Positions 3,167 to 61,031 of a DNA stretch of 64,000 nt are shown here, piece by piece. The position numbers and the translations under genes were made by a program. The DNA comes from Alphaproteobacteria bacterium (GTDB taxonomy: Bacteria; Pseudomonadota; Alphaproteobacteria; RF32; CAG-239): the NCBI GenBank assembly GCA_045602545.1, contig JAZSBR010000010.1:46352-110351 (forward strand), given 5' to 3'. Below the pieces are notes generated by a model. The model did not search any database and had not been told where the DNA came from. It saw only the letters and a list, made by a program, of their open reading frames with translations. Each line of letters begins with the position of its first letter. Position 1 is the first letter of the stretch.

Positions 3167-3485
3167 TTTACAATCACAAAATTTTTTGCTAGCATAAATG
3201 CAGAATGGTTTTTTACCATTTCAAGAACCTTCGGGTTCGGGGCTGTCGTAGGCTCTTTGTTCTGAGTGATACACTATAAATGGTATCACTTTGTGATGCT
3301 GTTTTTTTTGTATCAAAATCCCCGCATTGGTTGGGGAGATTATAGCGTATGTTCAGGCTTGTTTTTCAAGCTAAAGGCTATAATAGTCATTGCTCAGAAC
3401 ATGATTTACGAACTCCCCGCCCACTGATTGAAAAACAGAGGGCATTTAAATTTTAAAAACAACCTTTTTAATGGGAGATAATAAA
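3167..3485 (+). promoter_or_regulatory. Promoter plus long structured 5' leader of LRR paralog 1
   Basis: TTTACA (3167-3172), 17 nt, extended -10 TGCTAGCAT (3187-3195). The first hairpin AATGGT/ACCATT is shared with the leaders at 44450 and 10961(-). Several further hairpins follow over ~270 nt before the SD GGGAGA. Confidence 0.55.
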
Positions 3486-4703
3486 ATGATAAATTTGAAA
3501 AATAAATCCGCTGTCATCTTGAACCCCGAACGAAGTGAGTGGGTGTCAAGATCTCATGTTACAGGTGTAGAGATTGTTGTTAATGACGGAGTTAAAACGA
3601 AACGTTACTCTGCAAAAAGAGATCTTTACGCCCGCTCGCCTAACGGCTCGAGGCTCAAGATGACTGCTCCGGCGTCGTGCCGTAAGGCACATAAACGCCG
3701 CTTCATATTTAATCCATGGATTCTTCGTTTCGTTTGTACTCCACTCAGAATGACGATTCCGACCCTTGCCCTCACTTTCATCCTTATCGCCACCACCGAA
3801 TCGTATGCGGAAGTTGTTAAAACATGGTCTTGCGGTGCGGTTTGCACAGCAAGTTTGGATTCTGATGGACTATTAACAATTTCGGGAACTGGAGCAATGA
3901 ATAATTATAGTACCACATATACAGATAATACTCGAACAAATGCACCATGGGGTTCTGATGAATACAGACTAGCCATTAAATCAATTAAGATAGATGATGG
4001 TATAACTTCAATTGGACATAGCGCTTTTAAGGGATTAAAAGAAGTAAAAACAGCTCAAATTAGTGACACTGTTAAAAATATAGGAGCTTATTCTTTTGCT
4101 TATAGCGGTTTAAATTCAGTTAATGTTCCTGATTCTGTACAAAGTGTTGGTATTTCATCCTTCAGCAGTTTTACCCCAAGTTGGTCTTTGGCATTAAAAG
4201 AAATGGTGATACCTGATAGCATAACATCAGCGCAAGTTGATCAGATTTTTATAAATTCAAGAGAGGGTAATAATAGTAGCTTGCCAACCATACGCTGTTT
4301 AGGTGATAAAGAAAAATGTCAAAACGCTTTAAATAAATATTTACCAACATCTGTTGGAGGAAGTTGCTCATCAAAATGTTTAAGTGCAAAGGTTAATATT
4401 TTACCCGTTATAGATGAAAAGCAATGCTTAGGTAAATACATATGGAAAAATCAAACATGCACAGCTATGTCAGAAAAAGAATGCAATAATGTTTCAAAAT
4501 ATTATTATGATGGAAAGGAATGCAAGAACAGACCTTCAAACAATATAATAGAATGCAATTATGAATATAGCGGTTATATTAAAGTCGGCAATTATTGCGC
4601 TTCACCTGAAGAAACTTATGCTAAAAAGCATTACACCCCGGCGGAAGCGAACAAGTGGCTAAATGATGATGATAACTATGTTATTTTAACATTTAAAAAG
4701 TAA
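3486..4703 (+). CDS. Secreted BspA-type leucine-rich-repeat protein, paralog 1 of 4; the true N-terminus is uncertain
   Basis: LRR_5-like repeats (ITSIGHSAFKGLKEV.., VKNIGAYSFAYSGL.., VQSVGISSF). The C-terminal part is Cys-rich and the protein ends YTPAEANKWLNDDDNYVILTFKK. A signal-peptide-like MTIPTLALTFILIATTESYA starts only at 3750. Alternative starts are 3471 and 3750. Confidence 0.7.
   Translation: MINLKNKSAVILNPERSEWVSRSHVTGVEIVVNDGVKTKRYSAKRDLYARSPNGSRLKMTAPASCRKAHKRRFIFNPWILRFVCTPLRMTIPTLALTFILIATTESYAEVVKTWSCGAVCTASLDSDGLLTISGTGAMNNYSTTYTDNTRTNAPWGSDEYRLAIKSIKIDDGITSIGHSAFKGLKEVKTAQISDTVKNIGAYSFAYSGLNSVNVPDSVQSVGISSFSSFTPSWSLALKEMVIPDSITSAQVDQIFINSREGNNSSLPTIRCLGDKEKCQNALNKYLPTSVGGSCSSKCLSAKVNILPVIDEKQCLGKYIWKNQTCTAMSEKECNNVSKYYYDGKECKNRPSNNIIECNYEYSGYIKVGNYCASPEETYAKKHYTPAEANKWLNDDDNYVILTFKK
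3511..3760 (+). repeat. Block of GC-rich nested-palindrome repeat elements lying in frame inside the 5' end of the LRR paralog 1 ORF
   Basis: GTCATCTTGAACC..GGTGTCAAGATC, and CGGCGTCGTGCCGTAAGGCACATAAACGCCGCTTC (homologous to CGGCGCAGTGACGCAAGTCACATAACGCGCCGCTTC in the 19319 repeat). The block ends in GAATGACGATTCC. Confidence 0.65.
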
Positions 4704-9614: not shown

Positions 9615-10724
9615 TTATTTTTTAAAGGTTATCACAACTTCGTTTTTGTCGTCGTTACGCAAAACTTGAGCCGCCTCGGCAGGAGTATAGCGAATGCGGT
9701 TGCACCATCCGCCCATGTCTTTGCAAACATCGGCACAACATGTGCGCTTACTTAAATCCGGCTCACGAACGCATTTTGCTCCATCCCAGTAGTAATTTGT
9801 TGAAGCACAAGTTTTATAATCGGCATAAAACAATTGACCTGTTGCATCATATGTTTGTCCTTTTACAGCGGAATATTCAGTCAGTTTTTCGTAAATATTC
9901 GAACAAGATGCTTTATCTCCGCGACATATTATTTGTACATTATTTACTAGAATATAATCACCCAATGATTGATAAGCTATATCATTCAATGTGTCTGGTA
10001 TAATTACCTGTACAAGACTATTGGAATCTTGCAAAGCACATTCTCCAATGCTTGTTACCGCATCACCGAAATCAACATATCTTAATTTTTTTTCATTATC
10101 AAATGCTCCGGCTCCTACACGTTCAACCGAATCTCCGATGGTTATATTTGTGACTTTTTTCATATTTCTGAATGCCTGTGATCCGATATTTTCAACGCCG
10201 GAAACATAAATTGATGTGATGTCTGCCGGCCACTGAGTATTTTGTCCTGTCTTACCCCAAGCATAATCATCCATTGTACCGACTGTTCCATCCTCTCCGC
10301 CGGTTATAGTTAGCTTTTGATTTTCCACCGACCAGCAACAATTTGTTCCGCATGATTGTTGTCCGGTTTCGCAATTTATATCGTTTATATCTGCCCATAA
10401 TTCAGCGGTTGTGGCGAGGGTTAAAATAAGGGCAAAAATTAGTACTTTAGCGAAACCAAAACTAAAATGGTCATACTTGAGAATTGCGGAGCAATTAACC
10501 GAGTATCTCGGCTGATTCTTTTTTGATTCGGCTGAGATTATCGGTTCGCTTGACGCGCCCGATAATGACAATCTTTGTTTTTTGCTTTTGCCGCTCAAGG
10601 TCAGGAATGACAGCGCTTTGTTTGTCTCGGTGTTGAAGATTACCACGTTAGAGCCTACAGCTCTTCCTAGTAATGGCATCGCCTTATTTATTTTTTCACT
10701 CTTAATTTCAAACATTTTTAACAT
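9615..10724 (-). CDS. Secreted BspA-type leucine-rich-repeat protein, paralog 2 of 4, with a repeat-derived N-terminal extension
   Basis: LRR_5-like repeats (VENIGSQAFRNMKKV.., VERVGAGAFDNEKKL.., VTSIGECALQDSNSL..). The protein ends RYTPAEAAQVLRNDDKNEVVITFKK. The start context AAAGAAAGGATGTTAAAAATG is homologous to that of paralog 4. Confidence 0.7.
   Translation of the reverse strand: MLKMFEIKSEKINKAMPLLGRAVGSNVVIFNTETNKALSFLTLSGKSKKQRLSLSGASSEPIISAESKKNQPRYSVNCSAILKYDHFSFGFAKVLIFALILTLATTAELWADINDINCETGQQSCGTNCCWSVENQKLTITGGEDGTVGTMDDYAWGKTGQNTQWPADITSIYVSGVENIGSQAFRNMKKVTNITIGDSVERVGAGAFDNEKKLRYVDFGDAVTSIGECALQDSNSLVQVIIPDTLNDIAYQSLGDYILVNNVQIICRGDKASCSNIYEKLTEYSAVKGQTYDATGQLFYADYKTCASTNYYWDGAKCVREPDLSKRTCCADVCKDMGGWCNRIRYTPAEAAQVLRNDDKNEVVITFKK
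10499..10680 (-). repeat. GC-rich nested-palindrome elements lying in frame in the 5' end of the paralog 2 ORF
   Basis: The coding strand GCCATTACTAGGAAGAGCTGTAGGCTCTAACGTGGTAATCTTC matches the reverse complement of 20961-21003 (GTCATCACGAGGAAGAGCCGCAGGCTCTGACGTGGTGATCTCC) at 35 of 43 positions. Confidence 0.65.
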
Positions 10725-19318: not shown

Positions 19319-19832
19319 TGTCATCCCTTGCGGTGTGCCAAAGCATCACCGCATCAAGGGATTTAAACTTTCGGCGCAGTGACGCAAGTCACATAACGCG
19401 CCGCTTCTATATTATTTTATATTGCAGCGGCGTTTTGTGCGATGAAATCGCCAACGCCGTATTTAGAGATTCCTTGAGCACCTGACGCGCCGCGCAGGTG
19501 CAGGAATGACAGTTTAAAAAAAGTCGTTTTTCTGTCATCCCTTGCGGTGTGCGGCGCATCACCGCATCAAAGGATCTTGAGTTTCGGCGCCGTGACGAAA
19601 GTCACAAAACGCGCCGCTTCTATATTATTTTATATTGCAGCGGCGTTTTGTGCGATGAAATCGCCAACGCCGTATTTAGAGATTCCTTGAGCACCTGACG
19701 CGCCGCGCAGGTGCAGGAATGACAGTTAAAATAAACTCGGTTTCTGTCATCCCTTGCGGTGTGCGGCGCATCACCGCATCAAAGGATTTCTGAGTTCGGC
19801 GCCGTGACGAAAGTCACACGATGCTCCGCTTC
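19319..19832. repeat. About 2.4 tandem copies of a ~213-bp GC-rich unit, each built from five nested hairpins
   Basis: Units start at TGTCATCCCTTGCGGTGTGC at 19319, 19533 and 19745. A central stretch of ~110 nt is identical between units 1 and 2. Hairpin examples: CGGCGC..GTGAC..GTCAC..GCGCCG, CGCCGC..GCGGCG, GCACCTG..CAGGTGC. Confidence 0.9.
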
Positions 19833-20006
19833 CTTTCCGGTCATATTCCGACTATTACTAAAGTAATATTGCAAGAATAAAAAAAATATGTTACAAAAAA
19901 CGCAGTATCTGAAAATTTTATTGAAGGTTACTAGTTTAAAATTTGTTTTAACTTAAACGTTTAAGAAAGGGTAATAAAATGTTAAATACAAAAAATAACT
20001 TTAAAG

Positions 20007-20018
20007 CTCTCTCTCTCT
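20007..20018 (+). repeat. (CT)6 dinucleotide tract between an SD/ATG and the pilin reading frame
   Basis: CTCTCTCTCTCT is read directly from the sequence. ATG 19979 is 103 nt (3n+1) upstream of ATG 20082. Confidence 0.95.
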
Positions 20019-20081
20019 ACAGAATCTGAGGTTTTAAACTCACACAAACTCCACACTTGCAATAACGAAAAAGGCCGTAGC

Positions 20082-20795
20082 ATGATTGAAATGCTCGGTG
20101 TTTTGGCCATTATCGGTGTTCTCTCTGTTGGTGGTATTGCCGGCTATTCAAAGGCAATGATGAAGTTCAAAACGAACAAAACCATCGACCAAATCGCTAT
20201 GACTGTTACAAACATTAGAACATTGTATGCTCAGCAGAAGTCATACAATGGTCTGAAGACGAGTAATGCGTATTCCATGGGTGTAACAGATGATGCTATG
20301 GGTAAAAGCGGCACATTAACCAATGCTTTTGGTGGCAATGTCTATATTGGTAGCGCAAAAAGCGGTGCTGTCGGCGAAGGTGATGATTATGGTGCATTCT
20401 TGGTAACATTCACCGGACTTCCTCGTGAAGCTTGTGTTGCTATTGCCACAAATGACTGGGGTTCAGGTTATTCTTCCGGTTTGCTTGGTATAGGTACAGG
20501 TGTTGAAGCCGCAGCTGCTCCAGCTGCTCCTGTTACAGGTTGGAATTTGTTGGATTATGTTATCAGCGACGCTTATGCTGCTGTTACTCAAGATACCGAC
20601 TCTAATGCGCAAAACATTCCTTGCGATGTAGATGGTAATTCAACTAATGGCGGTCAAAAAGGTTCTCTAATAAATGAGAATGCCGTAGCCTGTGCTATTG
20701 GCAATACTTCAGCTGCACTTTCTGTGGCTAAAGCAGCAACCGGTTGTGCTTGCGGTTCAGCAAACAAATGCGTTGTATCACTTAAATATTACTGA
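20082..20795 (+). CDS. Type-IV-pilin-like protein, paralog 1. Only the in-frame body is given here. The leader appears to be encoded upstream in another frame.
   Basis: (KGRS)MIEMLGVLAIIGVLSVGGIAGYSKAM is a class-III signal/N-terminal helix with Glu at +5. The protein ends CACGSANKCVVSLKYY, like the paralogs at 59683 and 60321. Confidence 0.75.
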   Translation: MIEMLGVLAIIGVLSVGGIAGYSKAMMKFKTNKTIDQIAMTVTNIRTLYAQQKSYNGLKTSNAYSMGVTDDAMGKSGTLTNAFGGNVYIGSAKSGAVGEGDDYGAFLVTFTGLPREACVAIATNDWGSGYSSGLLGIGTGVEAAAAPAAPVTGWNLLDYVISDAYAAVTQDTDSNAQNIPCDVDGNSTNGGQKGSLINENAVACAIGNTSAALSVAKAATGCACGSANKCVVSLKYY

Positions 20796-20857
20796 TGTCG
20801 GGTAGGATTACTCGCGAAATTCAGTAACTATTATTGTGAATTTCCTAAATTACGTAG

Positions 20858-20888
20858 CTCCGTGGGGCCTCCTCCCCACGGAGTTTTT
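20858..20888 (+). terminator. Intrinsic terminator after pilin paralog 1
   Basis: CTCCGTGGGG cctcct CCCCACGGAG followed by TTTTT. Confidence 0.8.
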
Positions 20889-20915
20889 ATTGTTTTCCTT
20901 ATAAAATATTTAAAA

Positions 20916-31532: not shown

Positions 31533-31739
31533 GTTTGGCATTCCAAAACGCTATTCGAGATTTGAACTCGGGACGCTGGAGGAAAATAAACAAGCTTTGA
31601 TGCTTGTTTATTGATGAAAATTAAAGAATTTTTCTTTTTTTTACAAAAAAGACTTGACAAAATGCGGGGGGGGGTAAAATGGAGTTATAAGAAGCGATTC
31701 TTTATTTTGTATAGCAACTTTTATATAAGGAGAAAAGCA

Positions 31740-32420
31740 ATGAAATTAAAAGATAAAATAAAAACTGTTGCCATAGGTATGGTTACTGCAGTAATGACTT
31801 CTTGCGGTTTTAAGAGTAATAAAGCGGAGGTCGTTGAAAGACACCCTAGTGTGCATGCATTTGATGATTCATCTCGTCCTAGAATGAGTGACTATAGACC
31901 TTTAGGTTGGATGTCTATAAGTGGAATCCCTTTGGAAAATGACGATTCTATTGATGTTAAAAAGCGTCACGAATGGCAAGAAAAATTGGATAATGCCGGG
32001 ATTCCTGTTGCCAAAAAAGGAGAAAACGATACCGACTCCTTATTGATAAGTGTGGAAGAAAAAGACGGAAAACTGCAAAATCCGAGATATGGACTGAACC
32101 CTAGCGCTGAAATTCAAGCTGTAGAGCGAGTTGACGGATATGCTATAGAACGTGAGGGGAAGACGCAAAAGGTTAATAAGTTTGATAAATCATATTTTGG
32201 TGTTGAAAACGTGAAAGAGGTCAAAAAACGTGTTACTGAAAACATAGCTGTTGTAAAAAATAAAGAGGTGGAAAAAACTTTGAAAGAAGGTGATAAGATT
32301 AATGGACACGTTGTTAAAGAAGATGGCAAAAGTCCGACAATACAAGAAGAACGTGATGAACCAACCGGAACAAAGGTGACTACGTTTAACTATACCAGAA
32401 ATTATAATTACAAAGAATAA
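31740..32420 (+). CDS. Lipoprotein of unknown function
   Basis: MKLKDKIKTVAIGMVTAVMTSCGF has a lipobox. The SD AAGGAG precedes ATG 31740, and the promoter TTGACA..GGTAAAAT lies upstream. Confidence 0.65.
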   Translation: MKLKDKIKTVAIGMVTAVMTSCGFKSNKAEVVERHPSVHAFDDSSRPRMSDYRPLGWMSISGIPLENDDSIDVKKRHEWQEKLDNAGIPVAKKGENDTDSLLISVEEKDGKLQNPRYGLNPSAEIQAVERVDGYAIEREGKTQKVNKFDKSYFGVENVKEVKKRVTENIAVVKNKEVEKTLKEGDKINGHVVKEDGKSPTIQEERDEPTGTKVTTFNYTRNYNYKE

Positions 32421-39822: not shown

Positions 39823-40536
39823 ATGAATAAGTTTGTTTTAATAGGTGCATTTATATTATATTTTGCGACTCCAAAAGTTTCTTCTGCCGCGTGTGATTAT
39901 GGTGATTTTTCCTGTAATGGAATGACCGGTGATAGTGCCTATTGTTGCTATACCGATCTTGACGGAGACGGAAAAAATATTTCAATATATAAAGATCCGG
40001 CTGCCGGAGATAATGAAGCTAGTGTGGGATATGGAGCCTTTTGGGAAAATGAAACTATAGAAAACGTTTATATAGATGAAGGAGTTACTTCAATCAAACC
40101 TAATGCTTTTGATTCGGCAACAAATTTAATCAGTGTAGAGATGCCATACATTCAAACATTGGAAAGTGAAGCTTTTGCAGAAGCAACTAATTTGACGGAT
40201 ATATACATATCAGATTTACAGCACATAGGCGAATATGCTTTAGCAGGTACTTCAATTGATTATATAGAATGCCATAATACTATGACATTTTGTGAAACAT
40301 TAAAAAATACATTTCCAGTGAATCTGCAAGATAATTTTTATATAAACGAAATATATCAAGAGCCAGAATCTCCGCAAATAACAAAAACTGATTGCTACAA
40401 TCAAGGTAAAGTCCTTTGGGATAACACTTGTGTTGATGAATACCCGTTCGCTAAGAAACGTTGGACGCCGGCGGAGGCAAATGAGTGGCTTCACGATGGA
40501 AATGATAATTTTGTAGTAATAACTTTCAAAAAATAA
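39823..40536 (+). CDS. Secreted BspA-type leucine-rich-repeat protein, paralog 3 of 4
   Basis: Signal peptide MNKFVLIGAFILYFATPKVSSA. LRR_5-like repeats (VTSIKPNAFDSATNL.., IQTLESEAFAEATNL.., LQHIGEYALAG). The protein ends KKRWTPAEANEWLHDGNDNFVVITFKK. Confidence 0.8.
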   Translation: MNKFVLIGAFILYFATPKVSSAACDYGDFSCNGMTGDSAYCCYTDLDGDGKNISIYKDPAAGDNEASVGYGAFWENETIENVYIDEGVTSIKPNAFDSATNLISVEMPYIQTLESEAFAEATNLTDIYISDLQHIGEYALAGTSIDYIECHNTMTFCETLKNTFPVNLQDNFYINEIYQEPESPQITKTDCYNQGKVLWDNTCVDEYPFAKKRWTPAEANEWLHDGNDNFVVITFKK

Positions 40537-44698: not shown

Positions 44699-45625
44699 AT
44701 GTATAAAATGAGTGCATATTTTAGTAAAAATTTGATTTTAAGTTTAGGTGTGGCAACGATGTTATCATTAGCAATAGGCGAATCGCGGGCGGAAACAACC
44801 TGCACTTGGGAAGGAACAAAGCTGATTATCGGTGGAAGTGGTGAGTTTTCCGGCTGCGATTCGGTATACGATGATGACGATAATGAAATTGATTGGGGCG
44901 AACAGCAGGTAAAAATAACCGAAATTGAGTTTGGAGATGGTATTACGGCTCTAGGAAATTATGTTTTTGATAATGTCCCTAATTTAACAACACTAAACAC
45001 CAATAATATAACTACAATAGGAGAGGAATGTTTTGATAATTTGCAAAGCCTCTTGAAAGTTACTATGCCTAAAGTTGAGCGTATAGAAAATTGGGCTTTT
45101 GAAAATTCTAATAACCTTATAAGTATAGAACTTCCATCTTCACTTGTTTATGTTGATTCTGATGCTTTCAGAACATATAATGACATAGAATTTATTATTC
45201 CTGATAATCTAAAATTTGTCTCTGATGAATACGAGTGGTTATGGAATACGGATGCCTTAAATGATACAGATGAAGGATTAGTGATATTTAAATGTAAAGG
45301 CAACAGCGAAAAATGCAAAGAAAACATACAAAAATATATGGTTGATGCATCTAACGTTAGCAGTAAACAGGTTATTTTTGATGCCGGAGATCATAAAGAA
45401 TGTCTTAAATCTGCAGATGATGATTTAGAATATTATCATACTGGAACAGAATGTGCCGAGTTGCCAGAAAGCGGAAATATAACTTGTGACAGCGGTTATG
45501 CCGATTATAACGGAAATTGTTATGCTCAATTACCTTTTTCAAAAAAGCGTTGGACGCCGGCAGAGGCAAATGAGTGGCTTCATGACGGAAATGATAACTT
45601 TGTGGTGATTACGTTTAAGAAGTGA
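44699..45625 (+). CDS. Secreted BspA-type leucine-rich-repeat protein, paralog 4 of 4
   Basis: Signal peptide ..LILSLGVATMLSLAIGESRA. LRR_5-like repeats (ITALGNYVFDNVPNL.., ITTIGEECFDNLQSL.., VERIENWAFENSNNL..). The protein ends KKRWTPAEANEWLHDGNDNFVVITFKK. Confidence 0.8.
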   Translation: MYKMSAYFSKNLILSLGVATMLSLAIGESRAETTCTWEGTKLIIGGSGEFSGCDSVYDDDDNEIDWGEQQVKITEIEFGDGITALGNYVFDNVPNLTTLNTNNITTIGEECFDNLQSLLKVTMPKVERIENWAFENSNNLISIELPSSLVYVDSDAFRTYNDIEFIIPDNLKFVSDEYEWLWNTDALNDTDEGLVIFKCKGNSEKCKENIQKYMVDASNVSSKQVIFDAGDHKECLKSADDDLEYYHTGTECAELPESGNITCDSGYADYNGNCYAQLPFSKKRWTPAEANEWLHDGNDNFVVITFKK

Positions 45626-52935: not shown

Positions 52936-53649
52936 ATGAGTGATGATATAAAAGTTTCAAAATTCAACCTTTTTGTTAATTTTGTTGTACTCTTAACCCC
53001 GTTCATTTTTATTATTTGCGGGGCGTATTTCGGGTATTTCGGGTTTTATATGCGCAACAAATTCAATAAAACCTTTGAAGATTTTCAAACCATTGATAAG
53101 AACATTAAGCAAAATCACTACGGCACATACAAAAATTTTGATACCCAATATGTTGCTTTGAGTAATTTTCTTCCCTATGATTTGGAGGTCAAAAATTCTT
53201 CCTCTCAAACACCGATTGTTAAAAATCGTTTCGGTGGTAATATGTTTTTTTATGAAGCGCTCAATTCCGAGGCGGAGCGCACTTTGTATTATGGTTTGAT
53301 TTCCGACCCGAAAAAATATAAAAATATTTACACCGGAGTTTCAGCTTATATCATTCTTTTAACCGGTTTAAGTAGTTATGAATGCCAAAAATTAGCCACC
53401 CATGATTGGGCGAAAATAATGCCGAATTACATCGGAATAGAAGTTTCTTCTTTGGAAAATAATCAGATATATAACGGTTTTACAAAGTTGAAGACAAGCT
53501 TTATTCCCGATTCTGAAAATGACGCTCTGTATTATAATTCCATAAAAGATAAGGGCTATATTTCCGTTCGCCCTTTGAGTGATACAAGAGCAAAAGAAAA
53601 ATGCAATTGCAAGTCAGACAATTGCACTTTTGCCATAAAATTAAAATAG
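52936..53649 (+). CDS. Divergent member of the pilin-like family that lacks the class-III signal
   Basis: It shares NRFGGN.., TGLSSYECQKLATHDWAK and a C-terminal CNCKSDNCTFAIKLK with the three pilin-like paralogs. Its N-terminus is a plain hydrophobic anchor. Confidence 0.6.
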   Translation: MSDDIKVSKFNLFVNFVVLLTPFIFIICGAYFGYFGFYMRNKFNKTFEDFQTIDKNIKQNHYGTYKNFDTQYVALSNFLPYDLEVKNSSSQTPIVKNRFGGNMFFYEALNSEAERTLYYGLISDPKKYKNIYTGVSAYIILLTGLSSYECQKLATHDWAKIMPNYIGIEVSSLENNQIYNGFTKLKTSFIPDSENDALYYNSIKDKGYISVRPLSDTRAKEKCNCKSDNCTFAIKLK

Positions 53650-55095: not shown

Positions 55096-57729
55096 TCAGG
55101 CTGCAATAAGCGACTTAACTTTTTCAATAGCCTCTGAAATCTTTGAAACATCGGTTCCGCCGGCTTGAGCCATATCAGGTCTTCCGCCACCGCCTTGTCC
55201 GCCTAAAATGCCGGCTGCGGCACGCACTAAATCAACCGCATTATATTTATCGGTCAAGTCTTTGGTAACACCCACGACAACCGATGCTTTGCCGTCTTTA
55301 TCCGAGCAAAGAACAACAATGCCCGAGCCGAGATTTTGACTTATGTCATCAACAAAAGCTTTCAGCTCTTTCGGGTGCGTATCCGGCACAACTTTGCCGA
55401 CAAATTTTACCCCGTTTATCGTTTCGGCTTCATTGGAATTTGAAGCTTTTCCGCCGGCTAAACTCTTTTTAAGATTAAAGATTTCATTTTCCAGTTTTTT
55501 GCGCTCTTCCAACAGTGAAATTACACGGTTTTCCAACTCACCGGTACCGATTTTCAGGCTGTTTGCAACATTATGCAATTTGTCTTCAACCGAGCGGATA
55601 TAATCCTCAGCCCCGACACCTGTCACGCACTCAAGACGGCGCACACCGGCAGCCACCGCCGATTCGCTTAAAATATGGAAATAGCCGATGTTTCCGGTAT
55701 TTGAAACATGCGTTCCACCGCAAAGTTCGCGTGAAAACGGTGCTTTTTCATCACCCATTGTCACAACGCGCACATCATCGCCGTATTTTTCATCAAACAA
55801 TGCCATTGCACCGAGCTTAACCGCCTCGTCTTTGTTCATAATTACCGTATTAACCGGCAAATTGTTGCGAATTTGCTCATTTACGATGTCTTCAACTGCT
55901 CTGATTTGCTCTTTTGTAATCAACTTCGGGTGCGAAACATCAAAGCGCATTCCGTCCGGTCCGACTGATGAACCTTTTTGCTCAACGTGATCGCCCAGAA
56001 TCATGCGCAACGCTTTGTGAGCCAAGTGCGTAACCGAGTGATTGGCGCAGATTTTCTTTCGGTTTTCTTCATTTACGGCAAAATTGGCAAACATACCGAC
56101 TTTAACCGTGCCTTTTTTCAATTCGCAAACATGAACGGTTAAACTCTCAAGTTTGTGCTTGGTATCAATAACTTCAGCTTCAAAATCTTTATTAACGATT
56201 GTTCCGATATCGCCGATTTGACCGCCTCGTTCGCCATAAAACGGAGTTTGATTTGCAACCAATTCAAATTTACCGCTTGTTACTTCTTCAATCTCTTTAT
56301 CATTTTGTACTAAAGCTTCAATTTCGGCATCTGATTTCAAGGTATTATAGCCCAAAAATTCGCTTGAACCGCATTTGTCTTTAACGCCATACCAAACTTT
56401 TGCCACGCCTTCATCACCGGAACCGGCCCAATTTTTGCGGGCTTCTTCTTTTTGTTTTTGCATCGCGGCATTAAAGCCTTCAACATCAACCTCCATATTT
56501 TTGGCCTTCAAGGCATCTTGCGTCAAATCAAGCGGGAATCCGTATGTATCATAAAGTTTGAACGCAACTTCACCTTTGAGCTTATCACCGCGACCGAGGT
56601 GTGAAATTTCTTCATCCAAAAGCTTCATACCTTTATCCAAAGTACGACCGAAGCGCTCTTCTTCAATTTTGATGGTTTCTTCAATAAGTTTTTCTCTGGC
56701 ATAGAGTTCCGGATAAGCATCACCCATTTCTTTTTGCAAAGTCGGCAGAAGTTTATAAATCATCGGGTCTTTAACGCCCAAGAGATAAGCATGACGCATT
56801 GCACGGCGCATAATACGGCGCAAAACATATCCCCTGCCCTCATTTGAAGGCAACACTCCGTCGGCAATCAAGAAACTGATTGAACGCAAGTGATCGGCAA
56901 TAACGTTATGAGAAGCTTGCAACGGACCGTTCGGATCGGTATTGGCAATGTCGGCAATAGCCTTGATGATGTGTTGGAACATATCGGTTTCAAAATTTGA
57001 ATGCACACCTTGCAAAATGGCGGCAATACGCTCCAAACCCATACCGGTATCAATTGACGGACGTTTCAAGTTGATGCGTGACCCGTCCGGCAAATCTTCA
57101 AACTGGTCAAACACCAAGTTCCAAATTTCAATAAATCTGTCGCCGTCTTCTTCAGGCGTCCCCGGCAGACCGCCCCAAACCTCCGGACCATGGTCATAAA
57201 AAATTTCCGAGCTAGGACCGCAAGGACCGGTATCACCCATCTGCCAGAAATTGTCTTTGGTGGCAATGCGGATAATTCTGTCTTCCGGCAGTCCGGAAAC
57301 TTTTTTCCAGATATCATGGGCTTCATCATCATTATGATATATCGTAACAGCCAACTTTTCTTTCGGCAGTCCGAAATCTTTGGTCAGCAGTTCCCAAGCA
57401 TAAGGAATTGCATAGTCTTTGAAATAATCGCCGAACGAAAAGTTGCCGAGCATTTCAAAAAACGTGTGGTGGCGCACATCATAACCGACGCTATCCAAAT
57501 CATTATGCTTTCCGCCGGCTCTGACACTTTTTTGCGCCGTTGTGGCTCGGGTATAATCTCTGGTTTCATTTCCCGCCAGAATATTTTTGAATTGCACCAT
57601 ACCTGAGTTTGTAAACATTAATGTCGGGTCATTATCCGGCACCAGAGAGGAAGAAGGCACAACCTTATGCCCGTTTTTTTCAAAATAATCCAAAAAAGTT
57701 TTGCGAATTTGATTTACGCCGACAGTCAT
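55096..57729 (-). CDS. alaS: Alanine--tRNA ligase
   Basis: The start is taken at MTVGVNQIRKTFLDYFEKNGH. Class II motifs and the editing-domain sequence HSVTHLAH..CGGTHV are present. Confidence 0.95.
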   Translation of the reverse strand: MTVGVNQIRKTFLDYFEKNGHKVVPSSSLVPDNDPTLMFTNSGMVQFKNILAGNETRDYTRATTAQKSVRAGGKHNDLDSVGYDVRHHTFFEMLGNFSFGDYFKDYAIPYAWELLTKDFGLPKEKLAVTIYHNDDEAHDIWKKVSGLPEDRIIRIATKDNFWQMGDTGPCGPSSEIFYDHGPEVWGGLPGTPEEDGDRFIEIWNLVFDQFEDLPDGSRINLKRPSIDTGMGLERIAAILQGVHSNFETDMFQHIIKAIADIANTDPNGPLQASHNVIADHLRSISFLIADGVLPSNEGRGYVLRRIMRRAMRHAYLLGVKDPMIYKLLPTLQKEMGDAYPELYAREKLIEETIKIEEERFGRTLDKGMKLLDEEISHLGRGDKLKGEVAFKLYDTYGFPLDLTQDALKAKNMEVDVEGFNAAMQKQKEEARKNWAGSGDEGVAKVWYGVKDKCGSSEFLGYNTLKSDAEIEALVQNDKEIEEVTSGKFELVANQTPFYGERGGQIGDIGTIVNKDFEAEVIDTKHKLESLTVHVCELKKGTVKVGMFANFAVNEENRKKICANHSVTHLAHKALRMILGDHVEQKGSSVGPDGMRFDVSHPKLITKEQIRAVEDIVNEQIRNNLPVNTVIMNKDEAVKLGAMALFDEKYGDDVRVVTMGDEKAPFSRELCGGTHVSNTGNIGYFHILSESAVAAGVRRLECVTGVGAEDYIRSVEDKLHNVANSLKIGTGELENRVISLLEERKKLENEIFNLKKSLAGGKASNSNEAETINGVKFVGKVVPDTHPKELKAFVDDISQNLGSGIVVLCSDKDGKASVVVGVTKDLTDKYNAVDLVRAAAGILGGQGGGGRPDMAQAGGTDVSKISEAIEKVKSLIAA

Positions 57730-57928
57730 TTTTTTATCCTTATGTTTTTGTTGTTTAATTAACATATTGCGCAACAATAGCGCATTAAAATAAACTTGTC
57801 CAGCATAATTTTTGCTCTTGCAAATAAAATTATCATTAAAAAAACTCTTGACAATGCACAAAAAAGATATATAGATATGCTCGCTTTTTATACAATTATA
57901 ATATTATTAACTAAAAAACAAAAAAACT

Positions 57929-58081
57929 ATGGCAAACAAGTTTAGAAAATCAACTCGTGAAGAGAAAAAGAAAAAGGCCGTGCAGAAAAAACAACGTCCT
58001 CAGACAGAATACCAACGTACCCGTGACATGGAAAAGCGCCGCCGTAAGAAGGGCCACAACGGTGTCCTTGACGAACTATAG
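57929..58081 (+). CDS. Candidate small, highly basic protein (50 aa), absent from the ORF track
   Basis: atg..tag encodes MANKFRKSTREEKKKKAVQKKQRPQTEYQRTRDMEKRRRKKGHNGVLDEL. It is bracketed by TTGACA-N16-TATAGA (57848-57875) and a strong terminator. There is no clear SD. Confidence 0.35.
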   Translation: MANKFRKSTREEKKKKAVQKKQRPQTEYQRTRDMEKRRRKKGHNGVLDEL

Positions 58082-59682: not shown

Positions 59683-60309
59683 ATGTCAAATAATAATTTC
59701 GGACGTTCAATGATTGAAATGATAGGCGTTTTGGTGATTATCGGCGCACTTTCGGCCGGCGGTATTGCCGGATATACAAAGGCTCTGCACCAAAACAAAG
59801 TGAATAAATCAATTGAGCAAATCGGTGTAATCAGCGGTCATCTTTCCACAATCGGCGCCAACGGCGGCCTTTATACCGGTATGAGCAACAAATCTGCCAT
59901 AAAATTAAAGGCAGTTCTGCCGGAAATGAATCCTTCGGGAACAAGTTTGAAAAATCCGTTCGGAGGTGATGTAGAAATAAGTTCGGCAAAGCTTTTAAGT
60001 GACGGCGGTGATGATCAGGCATATTCCATAAAATACAGCGGGCTTGATAAACAGGCTTGCTTGGCGTTGGCAACAAATGACTGGGGATCAGCAAAAAATT
60101 CATCATTCATCGGAATTGTTGCAGGCCCTTCCGCTTCATTAAACACTGACAGCCTTTATCTTAAATGCCCGGGACAAAAGGCTGCTCTTACTTCAGTTGT
60201 GGGTTGCAATAACGGGACAACACTCGGAATACCTATACCGGTTAGCGAGGCAACAACCATTTGTTCAACCTGCGGAAACAGCTGTGCCGTTGCCCTTAAA
60301 TATTATTGA
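59683..60309 (+). CDS. Type-IV-pilin-like protein, paralog 2 (short leader)
   Basis: The SD AAGGAG is present. MSNNNFG|RSMIEMIGVLVIIGALSAGGIAGYTKAL has Gly at -1 and Glu at +5. The C-terminus is CSTCGNSCAVALKYY. The promoter TTGACG-N17-TAAGAA lies upstream. Confidence 0.8.
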   Translation: MSNNNFGRSMIEMIGVLVIIGALSAGGIAGYTKALHQNKVNKSIEQIGVISGHLSTIGANGGLYTGMSNKSAIKLKAVLPEMNPSGTSLKNPFGGDVEISSAKLLSDGGDDQAYSIKYSGLDKQACLALATNDWGSAKNSSFIGIVAGPSASLNTDSLYLKCPGQKAALTSVVGCNNGTTLGIPIPVSEATTICSTCGNSCAVALKYY

Positions 60310-60320
60310 GGAGATTTGAT

Positions 60321-61031
60321 ATGATAGATAATATAAGCAGATTCGCACAGAGCGGAAGAAGTATGCGAACGAAGTGTGATGCAAATGCGCCGACTTTTTT
60401 GAGTGCCGTGTACATAAATAGTACACAAACGAAAAAAAGACAAGCAGGTGCACCGCAATACGGTCGCAGTATGATTGAGATGCTGGGTGTGTTGGCCATC
60501 ATAGGAGTGCTTAGCGTTGGCGGAATCGCCGGCTATACAAAAGCAATGATGAAGTCAAAAGTCAACTCAACCGTTGAAACAATGCTTACAATCGCTTCCA
60601 ATGTACGTACATTGACATTGCGCACCAAAAACTATGATAATCTGGCAAAAGTTGCCATTAAAATGAAAGCTATTCCTGAAAAGGCTCTTAACGGCAGTTC
60701 GCTCGGGGCAAATACCTTTGGCGGCAGCGTAGGACTCGGAGAATTTTATAATAAATCGTTTTATGTTGCCATGAACGGCTTGCCGAGAGAAGCTTGCGTT
60801 GAGATTGCTTCAAAAGATTTCGGCAGTGCCTTGGTTTATGCCGGCGACGGTGATTTTGGCGCCAATAAATTATCATCGCTCGAAAATACAAACTTAAAAT
60901 TTGCCAATCCGGCTTGTTCTTCGGCTGCCCCTTATTATTGCCTGAAAAAACCAATGAGTCCGGCAACCGCGGCGCAAGCTTGCAGTTGTGCGGTGTCAAG
61001 CGGTTGCAGTGTAGCCCTCATAATGTTTTAA
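60321..61031 (+). CDS. Type-IV-pilin-like protein, paralog 3 (48-residue leader)
   Basis: The SD GAGGAG lies 7 nt before ATG 60321. ..QYG|RSMIEMLGVLAIIGVLSVGGIAGYTKAM, with a C-terminal CSCAVSSGCSVALIMF. Confidence 0.75.
   Translation: MIDNISRFAQSGRSMRTKCDANAPTFLSAVYINSTQTKKRQAGAPQYGRSMIEMLGVLAIIGVLSVGGIAGYTKAMMKSKVNSTVETMLTIASNVRTLTLRTKNYDNLAKVAIKMKAIPEKALNGSSLGANTFGGSVGLGEFYNKSFYVAMNGLPREACVEIASKDFGSALVYAGDGDFGANKLSSLENTNLKFANPACSSAAPYYCLKKPMSPATAAQACSCAVSSGCSVALIMF

Follow-up and report, generated by a model that had tools for sequence, protein, structure and literature searches.

A CT repeat in the leader of a type IVb-like prepilin gene, a probable ON/OFF switch in an uncultured rumen/gut alphaproteobacterium

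Introduction

How can a pilin gene be expressed when the Shine-Dalgarno (SD) sequence and ATG in front of it open a different reading frame? The question is raised by a pilin gene at positions 19979-20795 of a 64,000-nucleotide (nt) stretch of alphaproteobacterial DNA (contig JAZSBR010000010.1; hereafter the window), in which a run of six CT dinucleotides separates the start codon from the pilin frame. A first-pass annotation of the window, made from the sequence alone, had proposed that this run is a slipped-strand ON/OFF switch. Here, we compared the leader of this gene with that of 16 related contigs and found tracts of 4, 6, 7, 8 and 10 units, some of which join the ATG to the pilin and some of which do not. 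We consider it likely that the gene carries a repeat-slippage switch in its prepilin leader. The window is chromosomal and contains the housekeeping genes relA/spoT, rpoZ, rpoD, lexA, secY and alaS, as well as glycogen and ATP synthase genes.

Results

Anatomy of the pilin locus

The SD sequence, start codon, tract and stop codon on which the switch was proposed all read as the first-pass annotation had described them (Table 1). The ATG at 19979 opens a 16-codon open reading frame (ORF; MLNTKNNFKALSLYRI, followed by a stop) that runs through the tract and ends at TGA 20027-20029. The pilin ORF, as mechanically called from 20082 to 20795, is in the +1 frame relative to this ATG (20082-19979 = 103 nt). 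Its frame is open from 19986, immediately downstream of a TAA at 19983-85 that overlaps codons 2-3 of the leader ORF, and reads IQKITLKLSLSTESEVLNSHKLHTCNNEKGRS-MIEM; as the annotation had stated, it contains no ATG, GTG or TTG upstream of 20082. ATA codons at 19986 and 19995 were considered as pilin starts and rejected, being badly placed relative to the SD sequence.

The repeat unit of 2 nt is not a multiple of three and the tract lies between ATG 19979 and the pilin frame, so that a change in unit number shifts the frame. This is the only dinucleotide run of more than four units in the 64 kilobases (kb), hence the longest, and CTCTCTCTCTCT occurred in none of 100 dinucleotide-preserving shuffles. 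The tract is thus more than a chance occurrence.

The codons that precede ATG 20082 are ggc cgt agc (Gly-Arg-Ser), and prepilin peptidase is predicted to cut between Gly 20073-75 and Arg 20076-78. Cleavage after this glycine puts glutamate at +5 and A-I-I-G at +11 to +14. The same three residues are spelled with other codons in two paralogous pilin genes of the window (Table 1). These observations, too, bear out the first-pass annotation.

Table 1. Features of the pilin locus and of its paralogues in the window. A slash within a peptide marks the predicted cleavage site.
Feature	Position	Strand	Remarks
Candidate sigma-70-type promoter: TTGCAA (19869-19874), 17-nt spacer, TACAAA (19892-19897)	19869-19897	+	read from sequence
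Shine-Dalgarno sequence GAAAGGG	19965-19971	+	7 nt upstream of ATG 19979
Start codon and leader part 1 (MLNTKNNFK and first base of an Ala codon)	19979-20006	+	ATG frame
(CT)6 tract CTCTCTCTCTCT, proposed slipped-strand switch	20007-20018	+	(Leu-Ser)n in the leader of ON alleles
Leader part 2 (TESEVLNSHKLHTCNNEKG)	20019-20075	+	pilin frame, here out of frame with ATG 19979
TGA closing the ATG-frame ORF in the (CT)6 configuration	20027-20029	+	
Predicted mature type IVb pilin (RSMIEMLGVLAIIGVL...KYY and stop)	20076-20795	+	
Intrinsic terminator, 12-bp stem, T-rich tail	20856-20895	+	3' of the pilin gene
Paralogous pilin, 7-residue leader (MSNNNFG/RSMIEM)	59683-60309	+	no repeat tract; Gly-Arg-Ser as gga cgt tca
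Paralogous pilin, 48-residue leader (...APQYG/RSMIEM)	60321-61031	+	no repeat tract; Gly-Arg-Ser as ggt cgc agt

Tract length varies among related loci

We read the leader in 17 sequences, comprising the window and 16 related contigs (L001-L016). The relatives were obtained from ENA and Logan assemblies by protein search, together with RUG410 (L005), an "uncultured Rhodospirillaceae bacterium" and another species-level metagenome-assembled genome (MAG), which was found by scanning GTDB species genomes for a DNA pattern. Scans of Joint Genome Institute (JGI) metagenome DNA with tract-spanning patterns yielded no match.

Four units were found in L006 and L007, seven in L001, L002 and L003, and ten in L008; in each of these six contigs the ATG is joined to the pilin (MLNTKNNFKALSLSTESEV...NEKG/RSMIEM), which we term ON. 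Ten sequences (the window, L004, L005 and L009-L015) carry six units and one (L016) carries eight; both lengths break the frame, the latter into the other frame, and are termed OFF. The tract is perfect and uninterrupted in every contig, including the divergent leaders of L005, L006 and L008, the DNA of the last being about 77% identical. The SD sequence is identical in all contigs that reach that far upstream, with the exception of L008 (GGAAAGGA). A complete downstream pilin ORF is present in all 6 ON and all 11 OFF contigs (202-240 codons in the nine OFF alleles with a called protein, a count in which RUG410 is not included). Reading upstream, the pilin frame of every (CT)6 allele meets no stop before the TAA at 19983-85, and that of the (CT)8 allele opens just upstream of the tract.

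Thus, the fusions that the first-pass annotation had predicted on adding one CT unit or deleting two exist in natural assemblies, as (CT)7 in three contigs and (CT)4 in two, and the tract is not fixed at six units among relatives. The (CT)7 fusion itself was rightly foreseen; its peptide, given as ...FKALSLSLSTESEV..., had one Leu-Ser too many and reads ...FKALSLSTESEV..., and the (CT)4 fusion reads ...FKALSTESEV.... Called proteins agree with these products. The ON-allele proteins P0005, P0006, P0027 and P0040 begin MLN...FKALS(LS)n; P0005, P0006 and P0008 begin MLNTKNNFKALSLSTESEVLNS..., the predicted (CT)7 fusion, while P0027 contains ...KALSTESEV, the predicted (CT)4 product, and P0040 contains ...KALSLSLSAEPE. 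The ON leaders of P0008 and P0121 are known at the protein level only. By comparison, 13 of the 120 best homologues are called from MIEMLGVL, as is the window ORF.

Several of these length differences separate very similar sequences. Over 4.5 kb of acpS-relA-rpoZ, L001 and the window share 95.8% identity, and both have the pilin gene at the same chromosomal position, yet L001 has seven units: the two are the same species and the same locus with different tract lengths. Across 13 close contigs there are only 7 variable sites in 188 flanking nt, against three tract lengths. The haplotype with C at 19996 occurs with six (L011), seven (L001) and eight (L016) units, and the haplotype with T at 20044 with six (L009, L010, L015) and seven (L002, L003). 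The change of T to C at 19996, found in L001, L011 and L016, leaves the amino acid of the ATG frame unaltered (aat>aac, Asn). The presence of one haplotype with several lengths implies repeated mutation of the tract, or else recombination within about 10-30 nt.

Downstream of the tract, substitutions appear to favour the pilin frame. Between the window and L005 there are 5 synonymous and 4 non-synonymous changes in the pilin frame, compared with 1/8 and 0/9 in the other frames; between L005 and L006 the corresponding counts are 3/0, and 0/3 in both of the others. With numbers this small, we take this pattern as supportive only.

The gene product resembles type IVb pilins

In Pfam searches, the pilin matched PilS_N (45 bits) and Bundlin (35 bits), both over their cut-offs (about 22 bits), while N_methyl scored 17.3 bits, under its cut-off of 21.2. 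An AlphaFold (AF2) model built from 42 homologues had a mean predicted local distance difference test score (pLDDT) of 86 and a predicted template modelling score (pTM) of 0.80. When this model was compared with the PDB using Foldseek, the top 16 matches were all type IVb pilins (CofA, TcpA, PilS), with E values down to 4e-6; these included 9iuf (the type IVb pilus of enterotoxigenic Escherichia coli, ETEC), 8uhf and 3hrv (TcpA), 3fhu (PilS) and 3s0t (CofA). By PDB sequence search the nearest solved relative was PilS of Salmonella Typhi (1q5f), and identity to the solved pilins is 12-23%. Together, the Pfam profiles and the structural model identify the predicted product of 19979-20795 as a type IVb, or type IVb-like, prepilin.

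The features of a class III signal peptide are present: Gly at -1, Glu at +5 and a hydrophobic alpha1-N helix. The mature N-terminus (G/RSMIEMLGVLAIIGVLSVGG) is nearly invariant in the 42 aligned homologues, at least 90% of which have Arg at +1. Classical type IVb pilins have a hydrophobic residue at this position (Met, Leu, Val or Trp). A charged Arg is thus unusual for type IV pilins, and we regard it as a variant feature that does not exclude the protein from type IVb.

The family is large, with more than 7,300 matches in the protein search, from sources named as uncultured Alphaproteobacteria MAGs. Its leaders range from 5 to more than 50 residues, and are 33 residues long in the (CT)7 alleles; since the paralogue at 60321 has a leader of 48, long leaders are normal here and one of 33 is ordinary. 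Type IVb pilins in general also have long leaders, of roughly 15-30 residues. A protein search with the leader alone returned short fragments and missed known full-length ON alleles, although it gained the ON leader P0121 and other long leaders. Between strains the pilin body is hypervariable (about 55-70% identity among the OFF alleles), while conservation is seen in the 5' module (promoter, leader and alpha1 helix) and in the 3' end, including the terminator, as is expected of an exposed surface antigen under selection.

Proposed mechanism of the switch

Under the switch that we propose, CT units would be gained or lost by slipped-strand mispairing during replication, and the number of units would decide whether the pilin shares a frame with its only start codon. 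Tracts of 4, 7 or 10 units (1 mod 3) would be ON; with six, translation would end at TGA 20027; and with eight (presumably also five or nine) the ribosome would enter the other frame, again OFF. In the ON state the tract would encode Leu-Ser repeats within a leader of about 33 residues that is removed at G/RSMIE, so that the mature pilin would be unchanged by tract length. The window would hold the OFF (CT)6 allele, one unit from ON; judged by its reading frames, this allele would be silent or would at best give a leaderless product, as the first-pass annotation had suggested. We infer that length changes may be frequent and reversible within a population, and that OFF cells would lack pili, with a possible benefit such as escape from phage or host pressure.

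Alternative explanations

Several observations weigh against such a switch. All of the length evidence is comparison between assemblies. The tract of six or seven units is short, at or below the cut-offs of 6 to 8 units used for the prediction of phase-variable dinucleotide repeats; six units reach the lower dinucleotide cut-off of PhasomeIt (6) and not the stricter one (8) (PMC5953494). Wherever the same pilin was recovered from two samples, the repeat number was also the same (3 of 3 pairs: L002/L003, L006/L007 and L011/L012). Ten of the 11 OFF contigs have exactly six units, to which the spread of one null allele, by descent or recombination, could have contributed. Finally, a scan of the main ORFs of the 64-kb window revealed no ATPase, platform protein or prepilin peptidase.

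One alternative is that (CT)6 is an inherited frameshift null that has spread among strains, in a gene that is stably polymorphic or being lost and whose tract changes on evolutionary timescales only. The predominance of (CT)6 (10 of the 17 contigs), the agreement of identical pilins from different samples, and a tract that is short for a hypermutable dinucleotide repeat all favour this explanation. Nonetheless, every OFF allele retains an open leader frame along with its complete pilin ORF, and the OFF bodies are too dissimilar from one another to be copies of one dead gene. The tract, moreover, remains uninterrupted even in divergent lineages, and the occurrence of six, seven and eight units on one haplotype requires that it has mutated repeatedly. 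We therefore consider a stable polymorphism unlikely, though it is the best of the alternatives.

It is less plausible still that the real start is ATG 20082, giving a functional leaderless protein (MIEMLGVL...) with the upstream 16-codon ORF being unrelated, or a regulatory upstream ORF. An AAAGG does lie 7 nt upstream of this ATG, at a spacing like that of the SD sequence of ATG 19979, and gene callers choose this methionine in the 13 top homologues mentioned above; the AAAGG, however, is merely what the conserved Glu-Lys-Gly codons spell. In the pilin frame, the whole leader upstream and the Gly-Arg-Ser codons are conserved and uninterrupted, near-identical alleles (P0005, P0006, P0008) have this leader in frame with the upstream ATG, and all other family members examined have a leader ending in G/RS. 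A product started at 20082 would have no peptidase site, and its glutamate would stand at position 3 rather than 5. Both the site and Glu +5 are of established importance in type IV pilin processing.

We give similarly little credence to programmed recoding, in which a 2-nt slip of the ribosome or RNA polymerase on CUCUCU within (CT)6 would yield a low level of the (CT)7 protein. The P- and A-site tRNAs (Ser-UCU, Leu-CUC) could re-pair perfectly, a shift of -2 reaches the pilin frame, and (CT)6 is the predominant form in natural assemblies. Against this, the region 19960-20110, folded in search of a frameshift stimulator, gave no significant structure (z = -0.97), and the tract has no SD-like element or pause codon. 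In-frame alleles of 4, 7 and 10 units also exist, which means that the out-of-frame arrangement is not conserved, unlike that of true recoding sites. Efficient -2 frameshifting is rare in bacteria. A combination of the two devices seems just as improbable: (CT)6 would then be a preferred, leaky resting state, in which a heritable DNA switch is overlaid by programmed low-level recoding that supplies a small fixed fraction of prepilin.

Lastly, repeat tracts are error-prone in some sequencing chemistries, yet an assembly or sequencing error in the window can be practically dismissed, since nine further contigs carry the same (CT)6, and these were produced by different studies and with different assemblers (the RUG410 MAG, Logan, and MEGAHIT and scaffolded assemblies from ENA). 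A repeat-slippage switch thus remains the explanation that we favour.

Paralogous leaders and possible rearrangements

Neither of the two paralogous pilin genes in the window carries a repeat tract, and a paralogue in L006 has a homologous leader without one (MLNTKNTFKPFRKKSEAV...), representing a non-switching version. The leaders of two contigs, L004 (about 270-372) and L010 (about 670-772), contain an extra 102 nt that preserves the frame and gives ...NNDGRLLSICEEGAQSFLSDVYGNGYTSEKKASKFEQSG/RSMIEM. This insertion resembles the leader of the 60321 paralogue (window 60387-60470; about 73-74% DNA identity), which suggests recombination between the leaders of paralogous pilin genes. Within the 60321 leader itself (60321-60470), residues 11-15 (SGRSM) repeat the cleavage motif ahead of the real ...QYG/RSMIEM; this copy may be left over from an earlier processing site or from a duplication.

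For silent pilin cassettes, a tblastn search across the window found only the two known paralogues and one distant pilin-like ORF (52936-53649, 237 amino acids (aa), with about 23% identity to the pilins and a tblastn E value of about 5e-6). This ORF retains the ...EC..LATHDW... and C-terminal CxC...C...K motifs, and has a hydrophobic N-terminus without the G/RSMIE site and no Pfam match at 1e-5. In two relatives, the leader-bearing pilin adjoins DNA that lies 37 kb away in the window, at the 5' end of alaS and upstream of it: L002 (1348-1529) and L010 (1-242) match window 57586-58008 with 93-94% identity. Their arrangement points to a rearrangement between pilin loci, to an additional expression site, or to short contigs that were assembled as chimeras.

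Transcription signals and upstream DNA

The candidate promoter listed in Table 1 was not called by a consensus promoter scanner. Its pattern, TTGCAA-N17-TAnAAA, is retained in the divergent loci L005 and L006/L007, and this conservation marks it as a candidate for the pilin gene's own promoter. With the terminator at its 3' end, the gene is probably monocistronic. An Rfam search at the locus found no RNA family.

The spacer of the candidate promoter contains a run of eight adenines (19879-19886), whose length is constant in all close relatives examined, with no sign of variation. Between rpoZ and the promoter, at 19319-19832, lies a 213-bp unit repeated 2.4 times (92% match), and related strains have another repeated element in this place (about 4540-4860 in L001; present in L015 and L016 as well). 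This region immediately 5' of the pilin promoter appears to be a hot spot for small elements, mobile or repetitive.

Other features of the window

A two-piece (permuted) transfer-messenger RNA (tmRNA) at 2106-2446 (Rfam alpha_tmRNA, 217 bits) confirms the alphaproteobacterial class of the window. A run of nine guanines (31666-31674) lies within the 15-nt spacer of a strong promoter-like sequence, TTGACA-N15-TAAAAT (31654-31680), upstream of a gene (31740-32420) for a putative lipoprotein (MKLKDKIKTVAIGMVTAVMTS/C..., 226 aa) without a Pfam match. Ten or eleven guanines would give the optimal spacing of 16-17 nt, the classic layout of transcriptional phase or volume control, and the genome may have a second contingency locus here. 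In addition, BspA-type leucine-rich repeats (Pfam LRR_5) occur in four ORFs scattered among the housekeeping genes (3471-4703, 9615-10724, 39823-40536 and 44699-45625), which probably encode surface proteins.

Discussion

Contingency loci are known mostly from cultured pathogens such as Neisseria, Haemophilus, Helicobacter and Campylobacter. The closest parallels to the pilin gene are oipA (hopH), sabA and hopZ of Helicobacter pylori, which have the same CT unit in a 5' region encoding a cleaved peptide. In oipA, CT repeats lie in the signal-peptide coding region, with 5-11 CT in ON and OFF alleles (PMC10564699), and CT repeats are likewise found in sabA (PMC2715451). In these genes, as we propose for the pilin, the number of units sets the frame ON or OFF, and repeat numbers are similar. 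In contrast, the target here is a predicted type IVb prepilin with a class III leader; the H. pylori genes encode outer-membrane proteins with Sec signal peptides. Measurements of switching exist for H. pylori, whereas here the switch is proposed from sequence comparisons, in an uncultured rumen/gut alphaproteobacterium.

In Neisseria, slipped-strand frameshifts in the poly-C of pilE, the poly-G of pilC and the signal-peptide (CTCTT)n of opa turn the expression of pili or surface proteins ON and OFF (PMC5610331, PMC5953494). As in Neisseria, the pilin body is hypervariable between strains and its ends are conserved. The pilE tract, however, is a homopolymer in the mature, semivariable part of a type IVa pilin, while the tract described here is a dinucleotide repeat in the discarded leader of a type IVb one, and no pilS-type silent cassettes were found in this window.

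The pilin shares its fold or profile, long leader, Gly -1 and Glu +5 with the type IVb pilins CofA (ETEC CFA/III), TcpA (Vibrio cholerae), PilS (S. Typhi) and BfpA, and differs in having Arg at +1 where the classical members have Met, Leu or similar. We know of no classical type IVb pilin gene with a repeat switch in its leader, and our literature search found no report of such a switch, whether in prepilin leaders or in this group of rumen Alphaproteobacteria. The device itself, a repeat-slippage switch, is therefore a known one; its host and its position in a prepilin leader are new.

If the switch is real, an abundant and uncultured alphaproteobacterial lineage of the rumen and gut uses a contingency device to control the major subunit of its type IVb-like pilus. 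The 13 of 120 homologues called as truncated "MIEM..." proteins would then likely be OFF alleles of a longer prepilin. The OFF majority suggests frequent selection against piliation in these communities, for which phage or host pressure may be responsible. The locus would also illustrate a design principle, in which a repeat placed in the cleaved prepilin leader can expand as Leu-Ser units and leave the mature pilin unaltered.

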